NCBI GenBank assembly: GCA_029261435.1
Contig: JAJDBI010000112.1
Coordinates: forward strand, 1 to 34,930
DNA: 34,930 bases
Reading direction: 5' to 3'
DNA from: Nitrospinaceae bacterium
GTDB lineage: Bacteria > Nitrospinota > Nitrospinia > Nitrospinales > VA-1
The position numbers were made by a program, and so were the translations under genes. The notes beneath the pieces are model-generated. The model was not told where the DNA came from. It did no database searches and saw only the letters and a list, made by a program, of their open reading frames with translations. Shown piece by piece: positions 6,545 through 30,673 of the stretch (its first letter is position 1; every line of letters starts with the position of its first letter).

Positions 6545-6871
6545 TTAGTTGTTTAGATCTTTGCTGGAGTTTTCGCCACCCTTGTCTAAGGGTTTTTGGT
6601 CATTACTATCGATGCCGCCCCAGTTGTCGTCTACGAAACGGTCGGTCATGGTGTGCAGGTCTTTTTTGTTTCTTTGGATTTTTTTCAGCAGGAGTTTGGT
6701 CTCTTCATCAGGGAACAGATCGTTGAGGTCGTTTTCTTCATCGGGGAACACTTCATTGAGGTCGACTTCCGATTCTGGAAAAGGCAGTTCGTTTTGTGGC
6801 GCAAAAATTTTCTCTCCGTCTTCTACAATTTCATTGTTTAAAGATGGGGTTTGTTCGGTTGCTTCGTTCAT
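6545..6871 (-). CDS. acidic hypothetical protein with internal repeat
   Basis: GGAG RBS before ATG 6871; very D/E-rich; DLNEVFPDEE/DLNDLFPDEE repeat. Confidence 0.6.
   Translation of the reverse strand: MNEATEQTPSLNNEIVEDGEKIFAPQNELPFPESEVDLNEVFPDEENDLNDLFPDEETKLLLKKIQRNKKDLHTMTDRFVDDNWGGIDSNDQKPLDKGGENSSKDLNN
6702..6764. repeat. 33-bp-period in-frame tandem duplication
   Basis: tcttcatcagggaacagatcgttgaggtcg / tcttcatcggggaacacttcattgaggtcg. Confidence 0.8.
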
Positions 6872-6987
6872 GCTCGGTTCTCCAGAGAAATTCAATTTTG
6901 ACTCGGCATTTTACTTACATTTTTTGAATTAATCAAACTCGCTTCAGGTCAATCACCTCAACGCAGTCCGAGGGAATTGAGTAAAAT

Positions 6988-7056: not shown

Positions 7057-7380
7057 CTAGGAGCAGGCTTCTATTTGAATGAAGTCACGTAACTTGCCTT
7101 TGCCCCAATAGCCGTAGAACGCGCTTCCTGCTGTGGTGCAGGAGGTGGTCATGTGGATGAACTGCTTTTGTCCATTGTCACCTTTCAGAACCCCCACTTG
7201 TGAGAAAGGAGGGATGCAACCCCCGCAATTGGCGCACTGGGTGGAATGGAGTTCGCATAACTTATGCAGGCAGGGTTGGCAGACTATTGGATCAAACAGA
7301 TAGATTTCTTCCCCTTGATATTCAATCACGGTGGGAATAGTACTTACCGGAGCTTTACATTCCTGGCAGACCGAGCTCAT
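7057..7380 (-). CDS. small double zinc-finger protein (LIM-like spacing)
   Basis: C5xxC8-x25-C34xxC37-x11-C49xxC52-x23-H76xxxxC81. Confidence 0.75.
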   Translation of the reverse strand: MSSVCQECKAPVSTIPTVIEYQGEEIYLFDPIVCQPCLHKLCELHSTQCANCGGCIPPFSQVGVLKGDNGQKQFIHMTTSCTTAGSAFYGYWGKGKLRDFIQIEACS

Positions 7381-7429
7381 AGCAATCCGAAAAGATAATT
7401 GGGTGGTGAAAAATTCTACCTCAATCTGA

Positions 7430-8464
7430 TCAACTGATGCAGACTTTTTTCATATTTTGGAAGTCATCGAGAACCGCTCCGGCTCCCTTGACAATGCTGA
7501 GGAGGGGGTCTTCGGGGATAAAGACTTTCAAGGTGGTTTTTTCTTCGATCATCTTGTCCAGTCCTCGGATGAGGGCGCCTCCTCCGGTAAGGTATATGCC
7601 ATTTGAGTGAATATCGGAAGAAAGTTCCGGCGGAATTTTTTCCAGAGCCCGCATGATGACCGTGACAATATTGGTCAGCGGCTCTTTAAGTGCTTCGCGG
7701 ATTTCATCATCGCCTATGGTGATGGACATTGGGACGCCGGTTTTAACATTCAACCCTCTAACTTCGGTCGTCATGGATCCCGGCTGTGGAAACGCGCTAC
7801 CGATTTCCTTTTTGACGCGTTCGCCTTCAAACACGCCGATATTAAGATGATGCTGGAGCCGCATGTAGCGGACGATGGATTCGTCGATTTCGTCTCCGGC
7901 TACACGCACGGATTCGCCATAGGCGATGGCGGACAAGGAAATGACGGCGACATCGGAGGTGCCACCGCCAATATCGATAACCATGTTTCCTTCTGGCCGG
8001 TGTACGGGAATGCCAACGCCAATCGCGGCAGCCATGGGTTCTTCTACAAGATGGACCTCTCGAATTCCAGCCATCATGGAAGCGTCTATCACAGCTTTTT
8101 TTTCCACCTGTGTAATGCAGGTAGGCACGCCAACAACCATACGTGGTTTAAAGAACCGATGTTGACTCAGGACTTTTTTAATGAAGTATTGAATCATCCT
8201 GTTGGTGATATCAAAGTCGGCAATGACCCCGTCTTTCATGGGTCGGACGGTATTGACTCGAGAGTGTGTACGCCCATACATTTTTTTTGCTTCGATTCCA
8301 ACGGCTTCGATGGTGTTGTCATCCACATTCACTGCGACAACGGAAGGCTCGTTCAGAACGATCCCTTTTTCGGTGATGTAAACGAGGGTGTTTGCCGTGC
8401 CCAGATCCATAGCGATATCGGTGGAGAACAAGCTGAAAATATTGTTGAACAGTTTTCTTATCAT
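7430..8464 (-). CDS. mreB: MreB-family actin homolog (paralog outside an mreBCD operon)
   Basis: DLGTANT, VLNEPSVVA, RPMKDGVIADF, EEPMAAAIG, DIGGGTSD and LTGGGAL motifs; N-terminal amphipathic helix MIRKLFNNIFSLFS. Confidence 0.97.
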   Translation of the reverse strand: MIRKLFNNIFSLFSTDIAMDLGTANTLVYITEKGIVLNEPSVVAVNVDDNTIEAVGIEAKKMYGRTHSRVNTVRPMKDGVIADFDITNRMIQYFIKKVLSQHRFFKPRMVVGVPTCITQVEKKAVIDASMMAGIREVHLVEEPMAAAIGVGIPVHRPEGNMVIDIGGGTSDVAVISLSAIAYGESVRVAGDEIDESIVRYMRLQHHLNIGVFEGERVKKEIGSAFPQPGSMTTEVRGLNVKTGVPMSITIGDDEIREALKEPLTNIVTVIMRALEKIPPELSSDIHSNGIYLTGGGALIRGLDKMIEEKTTLKVFIPEDPLLSIVKGAGAVLDDFQNMKKVCIS

Positions 8465-9879
8465 GCCATTGCTTTCTTTTTCTGGGCCAGTCGGTTGCGT
8501 GAAAGATTAATGAGGTTGAATAGTTCTTTTCCTTCCTCAGGATAAACAGAAAGTCCCCATTGAAATTGTGCCTGTATGGAAACGCCATTTACATAAAGAG
8601 GGTTATATTCCAACAGGTGCTTCAGTTTTGATTTCAAGAGCCCCACGTCTTTTTGGTCGCGACCCATGAGTAAGATCAGAAAACAGGTTTCCGACAGGCG
8701 GAAAACAAATTTGGGAGACGGGACTACTTTCGAGAATAAGGCCATCATTTGCTTCAGGTAGGCATCGCCATTTTCTACTCCGTGGTTTTGATAGAGCTCC
8801 GCAAGATTGGTGATATGAAAAGTAAGGAAAAACACCGATTCTTCGGGCTTAAATACTTCTTCAGATAATGAATGATGATACTCCGTCAAAAACCGGTGAT
8901 TAGGAACTCCCGTGATGGGGTCCAGGTTTTTGTCATAAATCCATCGATCTTTGGTGTCAGCGCAGAACAAGGCAGAGGCAGCAGCTGATACGATCAAGGA
9001 TAACTTATCCAGATCGGCGTGGCTCACTCCATCGGGTTCAGCGGAACCGACCAGAAGGACTCCATAAAGTGTTTCGCCATGCTGAATGGGCAAGGCGGCC
9101 GCGCATTGCAGGTCTTCAGATTTTTCATCCTCAGAAAAGATGACAGCCTTTCTGCCTTCATGAATTTGCAGAAGAAGTGGCGACTTGTTTTTTGCGCAAG
9201 AACCTACCAATCCCTTGCCTGGGAATACCTGGGTTTCTGAAAGGTCATGCGCAAATCCTCTATGGCCGATGATTCGTCCTTCAGACTGGTTTTCTTCAAA
9301 CCAGGTCACAGCGATAGCAGGGCAGGGAATTAAGGATGTGGGAATCTGTGTCAACCTGTCAGCAACAGATGATCTATCCGGTGATTCGGCAAGAAACCGG
9401 CAGTATGAATTGATCTCCTGCAAAACAGGTTGTGCTGCTGATGAAGTGTCGGGCATTCTTGATTCCAGACTCCAGGCGACCTGTTGAGCGAATTCAGACA
9501 ATATTTTCTGTAGTTTGATGGAGAATTGGTATCGCTCCTTGGTGTCAATGGCGAGGACTGCTACCTGATCCGCATAAATTACTGGAAGAGCAATAAAACT
9601 TTTAAGGTCTTCATTTTTTTTGTAGATGCCGAGTATGCGAGTGTTCTGGTTAAAGTTTTCTATCAATTGTGGTTTGCGTGTTTGTGCCGCGATACCAATA
9701 GGTCCCTTTCCAATGACAATTTTTGCTCCCCTGTCTAAATTGCGACTGAGGGTGAAATGTTCACCCAGAACGAGTTTTTTTTCGTCCGGTTCCATTGTGA
9801 ACAGAGCGCAAGTATAGGCATCGGCAACGTTTCCGATCAGTTCGATGAGATGTCCCAAAATTATGTTGGATGGCGTCAT
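8461..9879 (-). CDS. GAF-GAF-degenerate GGDEF protein
   Basis: Two GAF-like blocks (GKGPIG...SFIALPV; GKGLVG...AAALPI..LYGVL), then DPITGVPNHR and NHGVENGDAYL; the GGDEF signature is replaced by RLSETCF. Confidence 0.85.
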   Translation of the reverse strand: MTPSNIILGHLIELIGNVADAYTCALFTMEPDEKKLVLGEHFTLSRNLDRGAKIVIGKGPIGIAAQTRKPQLIENFNQNTRILGIYKKNEDLKSFIALPVIYADQVAVLAIDTKERYQFSIKLQKILSEFAQQVAWSLESRMPDTSSAAQPVLQEINSYCRFLAESPDRSSVADRLTQIPTSLIPCPAIAVTWFEENQSEGRIIGHRGFAHDLSETQVFPGKGLVGSCAKNKSPLLLQIHEGRKAVIFSEDEKSEDLQCAAALPIQHGETLYGVLLVGSAEPDGVSHADLDKLSLIVSAAASALFCADTKDRWIYDKNLDPITGVPNHRFLTEYHHSLSEEVFKPEESVFFLTFHITNLAELYQNHGVENGDAYLKQMMALFSKVVPSPKFVFRLSETCFLILLMGRDQKDVGLLKSKLKHLLEYNPLYVNGVSIQAQFQWGLSVYPEEGKELFNLINLSRNRLAQKKKAMA

Positions 9880-9895
9880 AGTTCTTGTCTGGAGT

Positions 9896-10342
9896 TTACA
9901 GGCCTCTTTTTCTGAGCATGTCTTGATAGTTTTTCACGGCTTCTTTGCTGACTGCTACGGCTGCGACTTCATATTCAGGGATGGTGCCAGGTTTTATTTC
10001 TTTGACTCGTACGGCTTGGCAGTCGATGATTTTTTTCTCTCCGGTCGAGGGCACTCTGAAAGAAACTCGTAAAATATCTCCATCAATAACGGTTCCTTTG
10101 ACAGAAAAAACCAAACCGTTGATCGACATTTCACGGATGAAAATTTTGTGAAGCTTATAAAAGAATTCTTTTTCTCGTTCTATTTCCAGGTTCCCGGAAA
10201 TTTTGACCTTGGCTCTTTGGCCTTTCCTTTTCCCCAGATCATCGTCATATTTTGATCGGATCAACTCATCCAGGTTTTTCCGAATAATAAGAAGATCTTC
10301 AGTCGGTAGGCTCTCAAGAGAAGCCATGATTTTTTCTATCAT
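9896..10342 (-). CDS. PilZ-domain protein
   Basis: RKGQR (RxxxR) and EMSING (D/NxSxxG variant) motifs followed by a beta-barrel pattern; short N-terminal helical extension. Confidence 0.75.
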   Translation of the reverse strand: MIEKIMASLESLPTEDLLIIRKNLDELIRSKYDDDLGKRKGQRAKVKISGNLEIEREKEFFYKLHKIFIREMSINGLVFSVKGTVIDGDILRVSFRVPSTGEKKIIDCQAVRVKEIKPGTIPEYEVAAVAVSKEAVKNYQDMLRKRGL

Positions 10343-10424
10343 GGTGAAGCAGTCGGGGGTGATTCAGGTGAACCAGAAACGTTTGAAAAGGGCCCGAAAA
10401 TTCTATTTTCGGACTTTGAAAATC

Positions 10425-10453
10425 ATCTTATAGTGAGGGGGGATAGCTGTCAA
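10425..10453 (-). promoter_or_regulatory. sigma70 promoter of the PilZ-GAF-mreB operon
   Basis: Minus strand TTGACA-N17-TAAGAT. Confidence 0.7.
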
Positions 10454-10512: not shown

Positions 10513-10541
10513 TTGACAGAGATGGTGCTCGTTTATATACT
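10513..10541 (+). promoter_or_regulatory. sigma70 promoter of the tRNA operon
   Basis: TTGACA-N17-TATACT. Confidence 0.8.
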
Positions 10542-10683: not shown

Positions 10684-10759
10684 GGGCGGGTAGCTCAGCT
10701 GGGAGAGCACCGGCCTTACAAGCCGGGGGTCACAGGTTCGAGCCCTGTTCCGCCTACCA
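10684..10759 (+). tRNA. tRNA-Val (TAC)
   Basis: Cloverleaf: GGGCGGG/TCCGCCT acceptor, TAGCTCAG D-arm, CCGGC-CTTACAA-GCCGG anticodon arm, GGTTCGAGCCC T-loop, encoded CCA. Confidence 0.98.
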
Positions 10760-10776
10760 TTTAGCAAAACGACCGC

Positions 10777-10853
<77 letters not shown>

Positions 10854-10902: not shown

Positions 10903-11670
10903 TCAGGAAATGACATTCAGAAGGTTGCCGGTGGTGATGCTGGAGGGATTAAACCGGTTCTCCACTCGTTTGGCAAAAGGATTGTCCTGACTGGTGTCGT
11001 TGCTGCTTTCCAAATTGGATTCGGATTCCTTGTTTCCTTCCACTGATGATGAAGATTTTTCGGTGGCTTCCTCTTTTTCTTCAGCTTTTTCTGCTTTTAC
11101 CTGCTGTCTCGCCTGAGCTTCCAATTGCGCCGCCTGTGCGGCTACTTGCCGGTCTTGAGCGGAAGGGTCGCTGGGGGCCAGAGCGGCTCGTTTAATTGTC
11201 TGTGCCTTGCGGACCGTTGCTTCAGGGTCGCCGGGAACAGGCGACGAGTCGATGGAAACTTCTCCTCCAACGGCATATTGCTGTCCATCAGGACCGGTTT
11301 GAAACTCGTACGTCGGGGCACCGTTGGCATAGGGCCCGGCGGCGGCAAGGTGGGCTTGTTCATGAGCCCTCACTTCTGCGTCCCGCGCTCGGAGTTCTTT
11401 CAATAACTGACGTTCTTCGTCCGACAACTCTAATTCAGATTTGGGACCGGTTTGTTGGGAAGTGCCTTCTTCTTCATCAGCCAATTCTTCGGCCTCGAGC
11501 AGGGCGCTGTGAGACAAGGATGCGCTGGAGAGACTGACTCGATCTCCCTCGATATCTTTTTTTAGCGCGTCTTCAAGTCGCTGCTCCTCTTCGCAATCGT
11601 CGCACTCGCCGGTATTTCCTGCAAATCGCAGTTGTGGACGCGCTTGAATTATTTGAACTTCCATGGTCAT
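10903..11670 (-). CDS. SprA-related family protein
   Basis: LRARDAEVRAHEQAHLAAAG, YEFQTGPDGQQYAVGGEVSID and AALAPSDPSAQDRQVAA family motifs; exact start uncertain (11664-11676). Confidence 0.9.
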   Translation of the reverse strand: MTMEVQIIQARPQLRFAGNTGECDDCEEEQRLEDALKKDIEGDRVSLSSASLSHSALLEAEELADEEEGTSQQTGPKSELELSDEERQLLKELRARDAEVRAHEQAHLAAAGPYANGAPTYEFQTGPDGQQYAVGGEVSIDSSPVPGDPEATVRKAQTIKRAALAPSDPSAQDRQVAAQAAQLEAQARQQVKAEKAEEKEEATEKSSSSVEGNKESESNLESSNDTSQDNPFAKRVENRFNPSSITTGNLLNVIS

Positions 11671-11703
11671 TACCAATTATAGAAACAGTTGTCCGTAGTG
11701 GTG

Positions 11704-14944: not shown

Positions 14945-16744
14945 TTATAACGTTTTCAAGTACTCGATGATAGCGAGACGTTCTTCTGGAGCGAGCTTAG
15001 GGCCAATAATGCCGTTGCCCCTACCTCCGTCATTGAATTCATGACCGGAGTTGGAACTCCCTTTAATGGAAGTGTCCAGCTCAAAGCCTCCAGAAAAGGA
15101 GCCGGTATTGAAGCCCACGTGTACCGGATCAAACTCTTTACTTCCAAGGAAAAAAGTTTTAGATCTCTCGTAAACAGGAGAAAGTAATTCGTAAAGGTTG
15201 GGAACCGACCCGTTGTGAAGAAACGGGGCTGTTGCCCAAACACCATTTAGAGGCCGGGCTTTGTAACCCCAGGGGGCTTGAATCAAGTTCTTGCGGTACC
15301 CGTTCATCCGATCCCGTTCCTCGGGAGGAATATTGTTAGCGTCGTACCAATAATTGTTCACATTTTCGACCACTTTTCCCAGAGCCGGGCCCATGTGCGT
15401 TCCTTCAGTTATTGGAATCCATTTATTAGTTTTTTCCAGGACCCCTGCATTTTTAACCACTCGCGTGTTGAAATTATCAAGAAGTGTGCGATCGGTTCCT
15501 ACTTGATCAATTTCAATGACATTTAGGTGCAGCAACCAAGGCCCAAACTTTTTGGTCCAGTATTTTGGATCACCACTTTCGAGATCTTTTTTCAACTCGG
15601 CCATGGGTGGAAGGTGACACCCCTGGCAATGCATGTCATACAAATTCTTGCCCTGTTCAGCTTTGGATTGATTGATTTGACCCAGTGTTTCTACGGGCCA
15701 TTTTGGAGACATGAGCCCATTGCTAAAAGGTTTTTCCCCGGCCAGCCATTGCTCGATATGAAAAAGATTGCGAACTTGGACGGTTGATTTATAGAGGTCT
15801 TGTTCTTTTCTCAAGTTGACAGGAGCCTGCACACCAAGAGCCTCTCCAGCATTACGAATCATGGGTTGGTGAATGGAAGCATTGTATTGCACCCAGTCGA
15901 ACCAGGATGAATCCCAGATATGCGGATAGTTAACCGGTGCATCCACTGGAGAAAGGTTTGCTGTGTTTATGGGGCCGGGGGGATTGGTGTTATTCATGCT
16001 CCAGCCGAAAACCTGGTTGAGAATACGACCCAACGCATCGGTACGAGCAAACCCTCCTTCCACCACCTCCAGTTCCAGTTTGTCATTAACTTCTGCTTGC
16101 TTGACTCCCGCATCGATTAGATTTTTAAAACTTGTTTTGAGTTTCTTGGCTGTCTCCTTGGAATAGGCAGTTTTTAAAACCCTTTTGGCAAAACGATCAA
16201 ACCTGCCCGGTACATAATAGGTATACGCCACTGAAAGCCCAACGGCTTTTTGAAAATCCGCGAGGTGGGTCATGGCGGGTCCACCTTCAATACGAATACC
16301 GATGGTTTTTCCATTTTTCTTAATGTGAAGCTCGGCTGTGTGGCAGGCCGCGCAAGTCAGGCCAAGCATAGGCATTTTTGCGCCACTAATAGGATCTGTG
16401 AAATCGGGGTCGAGGGCAAACCCTATGGGTAGATTATTGGGATTCAGCTTTGAGTCATAATTGGTATCGGGAATGAATCCGATTCTTGCTAAATAATCAC
16501 CATGACTGAGTAACTCGGGATCGCTGAAAAAAGTTAAGGTGGGTTGTTCAAGAGACACAAACCAGTCATAAGGAAGAACCCGCGTTCCTTGTGGGGTGTA
16601 ATAAAACTTCTGCCGTATTTCTGTCGACCAGTTCTGGTCCAGAAACTGATTCTCATCGACCTTTTGTAATTCGGGTAATGTTGACATGCAACCCGTTATG
16701 GAAAATAGAATATACAAAGCGGCCCAATGCCTGAAGCTTTTCAT
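14945..16744 (-). CDS. di-heme cytochrome c lipoprotein, RoxA-like / cytochrome c peroxidase superfamily
   Basis: Lipobox ITGC, two CxxCH motifs (CAACH, CQGCH), YKARPLNGVWATAPFLHNGSVPNL and terminal IIEYLKTL. Confidence 0.85.
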   Translation of the reverse strand: MKSFRHWAALYILFSITGCMSTLPELQKVDENQFLDQNWSTEIRQKFYYTPQGTRVLPYDWFVSLEQPTLTFFSDPELLSHGDYLARIGFIPDTNYDSKLNPNNLPIGFALDPDFTDPISGAKMPMLGLTCAACHTAELHIKKNGKTIGIRIEGGPAMTHLADFQKAVGLSVAYTYYVPGRFDRFAKRVLKTAYSKETAKKLKTSFKNLIDAGVKQAEVNDKLELEVVEGGFARTDALGRILNQVFGWSMNNTNPPGPINTANLSPVDAPVNYPHIWDSSWFDWVQYNASIHQPMIRNAGEALGVQAPVNLRKEQDLYKSTVQVRNLFHIEQWLAGEKPFSNGLMSPKWPVETLGQINQSKAEQGKNLYDMHCQGCHLPPMAELKKDLESGDPKYWTKKFGPWLLHLNVIEIDQVGTDRTLLDNFNTRVVKNAGVLEKTNKWIPITEGTHMGPALGKVVENVNNYWYDANNIPPEERDRMNGYRKNLIQAPWGYKARPLNGVWATAPFLHNGSVPNLYELLSPVYERSKTFFLGSKEFDPVHVGFNTGSFSGGFELDTSIKGSSNSGHEFNDGGRGNGIIGPKLAPEERLAIIEYLKTL

Positions 16745-26323: not shown

Positions 26324-28027
26324 ATGCAGGTTTCTCATTCAGCCGAATCGGCCCTCGACTCGACTATTTCACGCAATGATTTGCAGGTGCTTCTGGTTTA
26401 CCCCAACACTCGGGATGTGGCTATGGCCAACCTGGGTTTCCAGCAGGTTTATTCTCTATTGAACAAAATTGAAGGAGTGGTTTGTGACCGTTTTGCCATG
26501 CCCGTTGGGTGGAAGCCGGAAACGCAATCGTTGGAACGCGAAGAATTGCGTTCGATGGATCTACAGATGCACCCGCTTGAGTTCGATGTTATCGCGTTTT
26601 CAATTTCGTTTGAACCGGATTACCTGAACACGGTGCTGGCCCTGAAATACTTTGGTATTCCGCTGGATCGCAAGGGGAGAGACGCTTCTTTTCCGATGAT
26701 AACAGCAGGGGGATCGGCGATATTCATCAATCCTGAACCGTTGGCAGAGTGTATGGATGTTCTGTACATTGGTGAAGGCGAAGGCATGGCCGAAGACTTT
26801 TTTAGCTTGTTGCGCGAAAACGAAGATCGGGATCAATTTTTTGAACGCGCAGTTTCCATTCCCGGAATTTATTTGCCGCAGCATTATCGTCCTCGGATGG
26901 AGCAGGGCCTGCAAGTAGGCGTTTTACCTTTAGAGAGTGCCCCTGCCCGTGTGGTACGGCATTGGGTAGTGAAGGAGGAATCACTTTGCACACACTCGGT
27001 TCTGCATGATGAAGACTCTACTTTCAAAGATATGGCATTGATGGAGGTTACAAGAGGGTGCATTTGGGCCTGCCGGTTTTGCACGGCAGGTTTTATATAC
27101 CGTCCTCCTCGTTTGCCCGATCTCGAAAAAACATATAATTCTATGGATACCCTGCTCACCGGCCTTGGTAAATCAGCGCAGACCATCGGTCTGGTCGGGC
27201 CATCAGTGACCGATCACCCGGACTTGCCAGCGTTAGCCCGGAAAATTACCGAACAGGGTAAGAAACTTTCGTTCTCTTCTTTGCGGATGGAAACGCTCAC
27301 CGATGAGTTGGTGGATCTGATTCTGCAAAGTGGTCAGAAAACTCTGACGGTGGCTGTGGATGCTCCTTCTGAAAAAATGCGCGATGTCATTAATAAGGCC
27401 GCAACCGATGACTACATCGTTGAGAAGTGTCGGTTCCTCACCCGCAAAGGCATTCTTCATTTAAAAATCTATTCCATTATTGGACTGCCTTTAGAAACGG
27501 AAGATGATATTGACCAATTCATTCGGCTTGTTGAGAGGGTGCAGGAAGGTTATGTCGAGGAGTGCCGGAAGCTTGGGCGTATTGGCCAGTTGACGATTGG
27601 CCTGAGTCCGTTAGTGCCCAAACCCGGAACACCGTTTCAATGGCACCCGATGGAATCGGTGAAGAGCTTAAAGAAAAAGTTTGCCCGGGTGAGAAAGGCT
27701 CTGGGGAAAATACCGTATCTTAAAATGAGTTTTGGTTCTCCCAACGAAGCCTACCTGCAAACATATTTGTCGCGGGGAGATCGGAATACGCAGGAATTTT
27801 TCAAAACTTATTTGAATAACGGTCATGATGCCAAGAGCGCGTTGAAAGAGCATCCCGTTGATGAGTATGTTTACCGGCAATATGAAAAGAATGATTACCT
27901 TCCCTGGGATATTGTGGATCACGGTTACCGTGAGAACTTCCTTTGGGAAGATTATCAACGCGGATTAAAAGCCGCACACACTCCCGTATGTGATACGGCT
28001 ATCTGTCACATCTGCGGCCTCTGCTAA
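26324..28027 (+). CDS. radical SAM protein (B12-binding-like N-terminus, TIGR03960-like)
   Basis: LVYPN..VAMANLGFQ, EVTRGCIWACRFC (CxxxCxxC), VPKPGTPFQW, LPWD and terminal C...C..CG.C. Confidence 0.9.
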   Translation: MQVSHSAESALDSTISRNDLQVLLVYPNTRDVAMANLGFQQVYSLLNKIEGVVCDRFAMPVGWKPETQSLEREELRSMDLQMHPLEFDVIAFSISFEPDYLNTVLALKYFGIPLDRKGRDASFPMITAGGSAIFINPEPLAECMDVLYIGEGEGMAEDFFSLLRENEDRDQFFERAVSIPGIYLPQHYRPRMEQGLQVGVLPLESAPARVVRHWVVKEESLCTHSVLHDEDSTFKDMALMEVTRGCIWACRFCTAGFIYRPPRLPDLEKTYNSMDTLLTGLGKSAQTIGLVGPSVTDHPDLPALARKITEQGKKLSFSSLRMETLTDELVDLILQSGQKTLTVAVDAPSEKMRDVINKAATDDYIVEKCRFLTRKGILHLKIYSIIGLPLETEDDIDQFIRLVERVQEGYVEECRKLGRIGQLTIGLSPLVPKPGTPFQWHPMESVKSLKKKFARVRKALGKIPYLKMSFGSPNEAYLQTYLSRGDRNTQEFFKTYLNNGHDAKSALKEHPVDEYVYRQYEKNDYLPWDIVDHGYRENFLWEDYQRGLKAAHTPVCDTAICHICGLC

Positions 28028-29182: not shown

Positions 29183-30673
29183 ATGAAAAAGCAATTGGCA
29201 TTTTTCACGGTATTCAGTTTTTTGTTGGTTTCTACAGGAGTGGGGGCGCAGACCATTGTGTTGGATGGCGTGCCTATAGGGCTTACCAATCCCAAAGAAG
29301 GACATTTCACCAACCTCGAAGCGACCACTCAAATCACACTGGGAGCAGAGACCATCACAAACTTCAGTGGACTAGACGATGACAAGGTTAAAGTTTCTTC
29401 TGGAGACACTGCCGATTTTCTGGAAACCCAGATTGTGGGTGGAACAGGAGTCACAGTAAACTCTGACGGAAGTCAGATCACCATCTCCGCGCCACCTGCG
29501 AATGTGGAAGACAGTACTGATGGAGTGGAAGTCACTTTTGCGGGATTGGGTGAATACGATCCGGGTACAGGAGTTGTACCGGCATTGGATTTGAACGGTA
29601 CGAATCTGGTGGTCAATCAAGCTAATCCCACTGTGACAGTGGGAGGAATTTCTTCGACGGTGCTTGCCAGCTCCGATAACCCGCAGCAGGTCATCGTGCG
29701 TGTTCCTCAAGGTTTGAGCACTGGCAACTATAAGTTGAAAGTGAAAAATGCCAATGGTTTTTCGGAAGGTCTCATTCCACTCAACCAGACTTTCTTTGAT
29801 GGAAGCGCTTGGAATGAAGCGACTGCATCTGCCGACTGGTCAGCTCGCATTTATCACCGTTCGGTGATTTATGACAATAAAATGTGGGTCATGGGAGGAA
29901 CTGATGGAGTTGATAAAAATGATGTCTGGTATTCCAGTGATGGCATCACCTGGACCTTGGCCACTGCCAATGCGGCCTGGTCTGCACGTACAAACCCCAC
30001 TTTACTGGTCTACAATAATAAAATGTGGGTCATCGGTGGATATGATGGAGTTAATAAAAACGATGTCTGGTCCAGTACGGATGGAATTACCTGGACTCAA
30101 GCTACCGGCTCTGCCGGTTGGTCGGCCCGTAGTATCCATACTTCGGTGGTTTTTGATGATGGAAGTGGAGAAAAAATGTGGGTCCTTGGTGGGTTAGGTA
30201 GCTCCAACAAGAATGATGTTTGGTCTTCTACGGATGGTGTTGCCTGGACCCAGACCACAGCCTCCGCTTCATGGTCGGTTCGCATTTTCCACAGCTCAGT
30301 GGTCTATGACAACAAAATGTGGGTCATCGGTGGAACCAACAATGGCTCCCATAAAGGCGATGTCTGGTATTCCAGCGATGGCATCTCCTGGGCTGAAGCC
30401 ACAGCCAATGCGCCCTGGGTTACTCGCTATGGTCACTCCTTGCTGGTCTACAATAATAAAATGTGGATCTTCGGTGGACATGATGGTGTCAGAAAGAATG
30501 ATGTCTGGTCTAGCACCGATGGAATCACTTGGGTTCAAGCCACTGCAGGTGCGGCTTGGGTTGCTCGCCTAAACCACACTTCGCTGGTCTTCAACAAAAA
30601 AATCTGGGTCATCGGCGGTAGTATTTCCAGCGGCGGTGGTTATGATAATGATGTCTGGCACACTTCCAACTAG
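29183..30673 (+). CDS. secreted protein with Ig/IPT-like domain and Kelch-like six-bladed beta-propeller
   Basis: GGAGG RBS, signal peptide, and six ~47-aa repeats WSAR..H...VYDNKMWV.GG.....NDVW.S.DG..W. Confidence 0.85.
   Translation: MKKQLAFFTVFSFLLVSTGVGAQTIVLDGVPIGLTNPKEGHFTNLEATTQITLGAETITNFSGLDDDKVKVSSGDTADFLETQIVGGTGVTVNSDGSQITISAPPANVEDSTDGVEVTFAGLGEYDPGTGVVPALDLNGTNLVVNQANPTVTVGGISSTVLASSDNPQQVIVRVPQGLSTGNYKLKVKNANGFSEGLIPLNQTFFDGSAWNEATASADWSARIYHRSVIYDNKMWVMGGTDGVDKNDVWYSSDGITWTLATANAAWSARTNPTLLVYNNKMWVIGGYDGVNKNDVWSSTDGITWTQATGSAGWSARSIHTSVVFDDGSGEKMWVLGGLGSSNKNDVWSSTDGVAWTQTTASASWSVRIFHSSVVYDNKMWVIGGTNNGSHKGDVWYSSDGISWAEATANAPWVTRYGHSLLVYNNKMWIFGGHDGVRKNDVWSSTDGITWVQATAGAAWVARLNHTSLVFNKKIWVIGGSISSGGGYDNDVWHTSN

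Follow-up and report, generated by a model that had tools for sequence, protein, structure and literature searches.

A second MreB paralog encoded with GAF, PilZ and Cys-rich proteins: a candidate signal-linked actin module of Nitrospinales

A 34,930-nt contig (JAJDBI010000112.1; hereafter the window, analyzed at its full length) from a Nitrospinota metagenome-assembled genome (MAG; 81% complete, 324 contigs) carries on its minus strand four genes arranged head to tail, which encode in order a PilZ protein, a GAF-GAF-GGDEF protein, an MreB homolog here named MreBx, and a Cys-rich protein. MreBx is a second MreB paralog that stands apart from the canonical copy in sequence and in gene neighborhood, and it is linked to its partner genes across the order Nitrospinales. 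On balance, we lean to the reading that the four genes form an accessory actin-like module of Nitrospinales, apart from the elongasome, in which the partners gate MreBx by signals. The open reading frames (ORFs), their common strand and their spacing were as described in a preliminary description of this DNA: 16 nt separate the PilZ and GAF genes, the GAF and MreBx genes overlap by 4 nt (ATGA), and 49 nt lie between MreBx and the Cys-rich gene.

MreBx matched PF06723 (MreB_Mbl) with 435 bits (E = 1.8e-130, cut-off 27) over profile positions 2–326 of 327, and TIGR00904 with 439.8 bits (cut-off 365.75). Its residues 13–341 aligned to Caulobacter MreB (4cze), and the nucleotide-binding motifs checked (phosphate 1, connect 1, phosphate 2, and adenosine), read as DLGTANT, EPMAAAIG, DIGGGT, and LTGGGAL, were all four unchanged relative to the Caulobacter protein and invariant in 54 orthologs, over which column identity averages 82%. 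The N-terminal residues 2–12 have a hydrophobic moment of 0.72, ranking 7th of the 334 windows in the protein. Both the intact ATPase motifs and the amphipathic N-terminus had been claimed in the preliminary description, and both were recovered. MreBx is not MamK, as it scored 84.6 bits against NCBIfam NF040964, the cut-off of which is 400.

Orthologs of MreBx with 69–99% identity were found in 36 of 40 relatives, and most of these also carry a second MreB at about 50% identity. The latter was followed by MreC, MreD, and PBP2 in all eight loci fetched, whereas none of the three was found within about 8 kb of MreBx in any of 12 loci. In the genome of the window itself, MreBx is the one full MreB found. 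The window is free of mreC, as noted earlier, and the only MreC match of the genome is found right at the beginning of contig C293, within an ORF that is open at its 5′ end and is followed by mreD and pbp2. Because this contig begins inside mreC, the canonical mreB of the genome is expected just off C293, unassembled. The preliminary description had proposed a second actin rather than the elongasome MreB, and had weighed against this a sole mreB with mreCD simply relocated. The relatives, which carry both paralogs and in which only the ~50%-identical copy adjoins mreC-mreD-pbp2, agree with the former, and together with the truncated start of C293 they contradict the latter. MAG contigs were seen to break repeatedly at or beside mreB paralogs (C293 of the present genome, G000, L005 1–2141; G017:C74; G074:C175; G020:C220), and gene “absence” in such MAGs thus frequently results from the assembly.

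The placement of MreBx was evaluated in two trees. The IQ-TREE set comprised 109 hand-picked rows, with 58 of 112 representative proteins, 14 of 21 MreBx sequences, and 22 MreC-adjacent metagenome loci among them. It yielded a clade of 33 rows with an SH-like approximate likelihood ratio test (SH-aLRT) support of 98, made up of all 14 MreBx sequences, both MreBs from another family of the class (f6), all four GAF-adjacent metagenome MreBs, and 13 representatives, so that every GAF-adjacent MreB of the set fell inside it. None of the 31 MreC-adjacent MreBs (22 from metagenomes and 9 canonical ones of Nitrospinota) fell inside this clade. In the FastTree set of 144 rows, from which 38 of 150 representatives with lengths outside 325–375 aa had been dropped, MreBx and the f6 sequences were grouped with a support of 97. 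These sequence comparisons place MreBx and the canonical MreB in separate, well-supported clades, so the MreB tree called for in the preliminary description set MreBx apart from the MreC-linked MreBs with supports of 97–98. A C-terminal Cys of MreBx (tail KVCIN/S) was considered as a subfamily marker and rejected, because the MreC-adjacent L142, L149, L157, and L211 have Cys tails while the GAF-adjacent L139 and L146 have none.

The gene neighborhood was followed in 76 loci retrieved with a Cys-rich protein profile. In 75 of them, all but L057, the Cys-rich gene comes immediately after MreBx, and in 56 a full-length GAF-GGDEF gene precedes MreBx. The end of the GAF gene runs into the start of MreBx in 50 of these 56 loci (by 4 nt in 31), and the two are no more than 10 nt apart in all 56. 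In six loci that have no GAF gene, PilZ stands directly before MreBx, with only a partial PilZ match (residues 1–61) in L069. The results demonstrate that the neighborhood, the conservation of which had been proposed as a check, is kept across the order.

One alternative is that MreBx is a specialized elongasome isoform, like Mbl and MreBH of Bacillus, which co-polymerizes with the canonical MreB and serves the same MreCD-PBP2-RodA machinery, while its neighbors tune its use. The full score of MreBx as an MreB, its alignment to Caulobacter MreB with intact nucleotide motifs, and the coexistence of both paralogs in most relatives all fit such an isoform; however, the deep MreBx clade excludes every MreC-adjacent MreB examined, the start/stop overlap ties MreBx to the GAF protein and to no wall-synthesis gene, and MreBx is lost in a 97%-complete relative and kept without partners in another. 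We regard this alternative as unlikely.

The GAF protein matched Pfam GAF_2 (9.9e-21, over two stretches), GAF (1.7e-13), GAF_3 (1.4e-09), and GGDEF (1.9e-15). In an alignment to a solved cyclase, SETCF replaces the GGDEF motif, and the position of the D-x-D motif, read by eye, is occupied by H and T. All 57 orthologs were free of a GG[DE]EF motif and of an RxxD I-site, and the I-site position of the alignment is taken by a conserved PSPK. These motifs indicate that the GGDEF domain of the operon is not an active diguanylate cyclase, in agreement with its earlier description as dead, and binding of cyclic di-GMP (c-di-GMP) by this domain is not indicated by its sequence, which has no I-site.

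The PilZ protein of the window scored 16.9 bits against Pfam PilZ (PF07238), below the gathering cut-off of 22.5. However, 19 of its 23 orthologs matched Pfam PilZ at E ≤ 0.1 (best, 5.7e-12). R39 and R43 (RxxxR) and S73 are invariant among the orthologs, and at least 90% of them have G76; the second PilZ motif, [D/N/E]xSxxG, is conserved, its first position being E, D, or N, and E in the protein of the window. The AlphaFold2 model (pLDDT 83.2) was compared with the PDB by Foldseek, and all 11 matches at E ≤ 0.001 were PilZ domains; a search of PDB sequences with the ortholog profile returned nothing meaningful. The assignment as PilZ, made in the preliminary description, is secured by the Pfam matches of the orthologs, the conserved motifs, and the fold matches, notwithstanding the sub-threshold score of the protein itself. 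The genome encodes 9 strong GGDEF domains (151–189 bits, vs. 60.8 bits for that of the operon) and four other PilZ domains, and c-di-GMP signaling is therefore available. With motifs and predicted fold intact, a c-di-GMP input via PilZ is plausible.

In the Cys-rich protein, C5, C8, C34, C37, C42, C49, C52, H76, C81, and C106 are invariant among 54 sequences. This set of nine Cys and one His makes it a probable two-site metal-binding protein. Of the double zinc finger proposed earlier, the invariant candidate ligands stood, while no Pfam or NCBIfam family was matched. Its AlphaFold2 model (pLDDT 80.4) found nothing in the PDB at E ≤ 0.001 with Foldseek, and the wide VIA-align comparison showed a weak resemblance to ZZ and LIM-type fingers, with a best Z of 4.0 for a ZZ domain. 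Atlas clusters for this protein are labeled “hypothetical protein,” and the sole phylum recorded, for one of the three best, is Nitrospinota. A complex prediction of MreBx with the Cys-rich protein gave scores of 0.02 and 0.00 vs. a mark of 0.32, which weighs neither for nor against binding. Among the representative proteins, P0045 is a natural fusion of an MreB core to an N-terminal double zinc ribbon (Zn_ribbon_4), which echoes the Cys-rich partner.

Pairs of GAF and MreB genes, mentioned in the preliminary description for some Deltaproteobacteria, do exist beyond the order, at least in f6 and on metagenome contigs. Two genomes of f6 (G045 and G046) encode an MreB 55–57% identical to MreBx, preceded by a 324-aa GAF-GAF protein that has no GGDEF domain; their loci have no Cys-rich gene, and G045 additionally carries a canonical MreB with MreC. 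A metagenome scan gave 80 loci, mostly MreC-adjacent, and in four of them a GAF-GAF(-GGDEF) gene lies directly upstream of the MreB-like gene, which is 70% identical to MreBx in L138 and 52–56% identical in L139, L146, and L148. Unlike the dead domain of Nitrospinales, the GAF-GAF-GGDEF partner in L148 (3471–4937) retains DID and GSDEF, and so may be an active or recently active cyclase; the ancestral GAF partner may likewise have been an active cyclase, with an ancestral c-di-GMP link. These occurrences suggest that the principle of a GAF-linked MreB is not confined to one phylum. The subfamily was not singled out by a search with one protein against 1.84 billion representatives (top identities ≤56%), because 50%-identity clusters merge MreBx-type with other MreBs, and an Atlas search with MreBx returned only generic MreB clusters.

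The distribution was surveyed in 92 genomes of the phylum, each at least 80% complete. The Cys-rich gene was found in 71 of 76 genomes inside the order vs. none of 15 outside, and MreBx at an identity of at least 69% has the same range. The only solid loss is that in G009 (97% complete), in which all four genes are missing together; G021 (74% complete) also has none of the four. The contigs of G017 and G074 end beside the PilZ and GAF genes, so that MreBx is missing through an assembly break, and loss of MreBx in small genomes, which had been considered, was rejected on this ground. In G059, a fragment of the Cys-rich gene, again at a contig edge, is all that is present. Most apparent absences of module genes are assembly breaks.

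Several observations weigh against a module in which signal-receiving partners gate MreBx. The GAF gene is missing in 8 of the 76 loci and truncated or internally deleted in 4 (the remaining loci being 3 in which it is cut by contig ends, 4 with too little upstream sequence, and L057), and PilZ was detected in only 41 of 76 loci, with f2, one of four families, having none. In three closed genomes of one genus, the PilZ and GAF genes are damaged by deletions or frameshifts: G006 (L050) and G013 (L048) share an identical deletion by which PilZ residue ~127 is fused to GGDEF residue ~396, leaving in G013 an open 201-aa chimera of PilZ and GGDEF tail directly before MreBx (L048 4321–4926), and an internal deletion is seen in the closed genome G007. 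The closed genome G005 keeps an intact MreBx with neither the GAF nor the Cys-rich gene and with only a PilZ remnant, genome G026 and the metagenome contig L138 have GAF-GGDEF and MreBx without the Cys-rich gene, and on the MAG contig L057 the Cys-rich gene stands by itself. The stable core is MreBx; any one partner can be dispensed with in some lineages, which weakens a model of obligate regulators. On the c-di-GMP side, the degenerate GGDEF domain without an I-site gives no link of its own, and the PilZ protein of the window combines its score below the Pfam cut-off with an E at the motif position usually occupied by D or N. As to transcription, the RNA-library contigs described below reveal neither the strand nor whether one transcript spans the genes, and DNA may be among their sources.

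Upstream of the operon, the promoter read in the preliminary description was found as TTGACA at 10453–10448 and TAAGAT at 10430–10425, 17 nt apart, with 10 of 12 matches in a promoter scan. The pattern by itself does not exceed chance expectation, with 8 promoter-like sites vs. 5.1 ± 2.0 in shuffled sequences. However, when upstream regions of two groups that otherwise diverge were aligned, all 16 had TTGAC and CTATAAGAT without change and at the same spacing, and, judged from this alignment, the invariant hexamers mark a genuine promoter as a phylogenetic footprint. Between the −10 box and the PilZ start, RNAalifold on 14 leaders predicted a small hairpin of 7 pairs, 3 of them compensatory, with a weak consensus energy of −0.29 kcal/mol and no match to an Rfam family. 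Among RNA runs, only one marine metatranscriptome shared words with the locus, and these were a small share (0.05). In one marine RNA-library run, contigs were 90–99% alike on parts of the locus; one of them (8388–8712) spans the junction of GAF and MreBx, and PilZ is covered by others up to 10374, which is a weak hint of expression; uncovered parts of the locus carry no meaning. The features of the locus are listed in Table 1.

Table 1. Features of the MreBx locus in the window
Feature	Positions	Strand	Evidence and remarks
Sigma-70-type promoter, TTGACA-N17-TAAGAT	10425..10453	-	Sequence read, promoter scan, 16-locus alignment
Small conserved hairpin in the 5′ leader (predicted)	10392..10414	-	RNAalifold
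Single-domain PilZ protein, 148 aa, with N-terminal helical pair and C-terminal helix	9896..10342	-	Orthologs, motifs, fold
GAF-GAF-degenerate GGDEF protein, 472 aa	8461..9879	-	Pfam; stop overlaps MreBx start (ATGA)
MreBx, second MreB paralog of the GAF-associated MreB subfamily, 344 aa	7430..8464	-	PF06723, TIGR00904, trees
Cys-rich protein, 107 aa, probable two-site metal-binding protein	7057..7380	-	Invariant Cys/His; no Pfam or NCBIfam match

In the accessory module that we favor, MreBx would most likely form membrane-associated filaments, because its nucleotide motifs and amphipathic N-terminus are kept, and the start/stop overlap would let MreBx and the GAF-GAF protein be made in fixed proportion. 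From the gene linkage we infer that the partners bind MreBx, that ligands control it, and that it has a cellular output of its own. In detail, the GAF protein would bind MreBx and gate its polymerization or placement on a small-molecule ligand, and its catalytically dead GGDEF domain, having no I-site, would most likely be a docking or dimerizing surface and not an enzyme. The PilZ protein would add a c-di-GMP input, and the Cys-rich protein could act as an order-specific adaptor or modulator of the filament. The output is likely a conditional change in envelope growth or cell shape, not basic rod elongation. In the lineage of Nitrospinales, the PilZ receptor and the Cys-rich adaptor would have been added, and the GGDEF domain would have become non-catalytic.

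A broader proposal is put forward only tentatively. An ancient, multi-lineage MreB subfamily might be a ligand-gated actin, the output of a dedicated GAF sensor, to which Nitrospinales gained a PilZ c-di-GMP input and a metal-binding adaptor, with assembly switched by second messengers to remodel cell shape (e.g., slender rod, curved, or coccoid).

MreBx might instead be a positioning or force scaffold for a non-peptidoglycan machine, such as one for secretion, adhesion, surface motility, or organelle positioning, in the manner of MamK or of Myxococcus MreB in gliding, with c-di-GMP as the switch in surface-attached life. PilZ receptors such as YcgR, BcsA, and Alg44 typically gate motility and secretion machines, and these three are the top fold matches of the PilZ model; MreB cores are also reused elsewhere, as shown by fusions to Zn-ribbon and TIR domains among the representatives. 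However, no genes for a candidate cargo recur next to the module from family to family, and the score of MreBx against the MamK model falls far short, which leaves this scaffold quite improbable.

The neighbors could also be unrelated signaling genes that share an operon with a spare mreB and form no functional module, and the loss of each partner singly while MreBx persists would be in line with this. The GAF–MreB adjacency is nevertheless seen again in a sister family and in three distant lineages from metagenomes, with 52–56% MreB identity, and within the order both the overlap (50 of 56 loci) and the adjacency of MreBx to the Cys-rich gene (75 of 76) are kept, so we give very little credence to a chance assembly. 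An anti-phage defense or stress island using an actin-like ATPase, for which the TIR-MreB fusion among the representative proteins (P0102) could be cited, is most improbable, as none of the four proteins matches PADLOC defense models and the locus is fixed, with identities that follow taxonomy (88–99% within the genus and 69–90% across the rest of the order) and therefore fit vertical inheritance.

Further genes were noted around the module. Downstream of the Cys-rich gene lies a very acidic 116-aa ORF (6545–6895, minus strand) with its own promoter-like site (6936–6908); it matched no Pfam family, had a counterpart in the closest relative only (86% in L046/L007), and probably does not belong to the module. 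A conserved gene set follows the module in other families and in L057 (L088 6303–7173; L124 6612–7856; L057 6651–7749), comprising a ferredoxin-like protein of 96–132 aa and a protein of ~151 aa, which we take from the look of its sequence to be JAB/MPN-like, and in L124 and L057 also a 4Fe-4S-type ferredoxin; this ferredoxin-like/~151-aa set is not downstream of the module in the window. Divergent from the module, tRNA-Val and tRNA-Asp genes stand behind a TTGACA-17-TATACT site with 11 of 12 matches (10684–10853 and 10513–10541, plus strand). Elsewhere, the window encodes an SprA-related protein (10903–11676, minus strand), a 599-aa protein with a RoxA-like cytochrome c region (14945–16744, minus strand), a radical SAM protein with an N-terminal Radical_SAM_N2 domain (26324–28027, plus strand), and a Kelch-repeat beta-propeller protein (29183–30673, plus strand).

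Nitrospinota are the main marine nitrite oxidizers, and to our knowledge their cell biology is almost unexplored. As far as we know, the regulation of MreB filaments by cellular signals is also largely open, and the known MreB regulators are structural partners or toxins, not second-messenger receptors. The conserved and compact four-gene set ties an MreB paralog genetically to a GAF sensor and a PilZ receptor, and so offers a direct, testable route to signal-controlled assembly of a bacterial actin; the linkage points to a signal-linked cytoskeleton in Nitrospina-type marine nitrite oxidizers.

More than one MreB-family actin per cell, with the core fold and ATPase motifs kept, is also found in Bacillus subtilis, which has the paralogs MreB, Mbl, and MreBH, and in Bdellovibrio, which has the pair MreB1 and MreB2. 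Unlike these paralogs, MreBx is part of a deep clade, the mark of which is a GAF-GAF gene upstream, and is accompanied by PilZ and Cys-rich partners; we know of no partners of these types for the paralogs of Bacillus or Bdellovibrio, and none turned up in the titles and abstracts searched. With the actin of the canonical mreBCD-pbp2-rodA elongasome, MreBx shares the family and, in Nitrospinota, a hydrophobic or amphipathic N-terminus that both copies possess; it differs in having no mreC, mreD, or pbp2 nearby in 12 of 12 loci, while the other paralog has them in 8 of 8. MamK, the magnetosome actin, is an accessory actin-like filament with a dedicated non-elongasome role, as is proposed for MreBx, but MreBx scores below the NCBIfam cut-off for MamK and has no magnetosome genes nearby.

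The PilZ protein of the operon has the fold and the RxxxR and [D/N]xSxxG-type motifs in common with YcgR, the PilZ domain of BcsA, Alg44, and MotI/DgrA, and differs from these receptors as a stand-alone putative receptor of 148 aa that is encoded with an actin homolog. As in degenerate GGDEF proteins of the FimX, LapD, and PelD type, a GGDEF fold without the catalytic motif is predicted in the GAF protein, and FimX was among the sequence matches of its GGDEF domain; in contrast to that type, the operon protein has PSPK in place of the RxxD I-site and has no EAL domain. Neither the PilZ/GAF/MreB/Cys-rich combination nor the GAF-linked MreB clade was found in the titles and abstracts of the literature searched. 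MreB paralogs, PilZ receptors, and degenerate GGDEF proteins are each well known, and what appears to be new here is their combination in one operon and the GAF-linked clade of MreB to which MreBx belongs.

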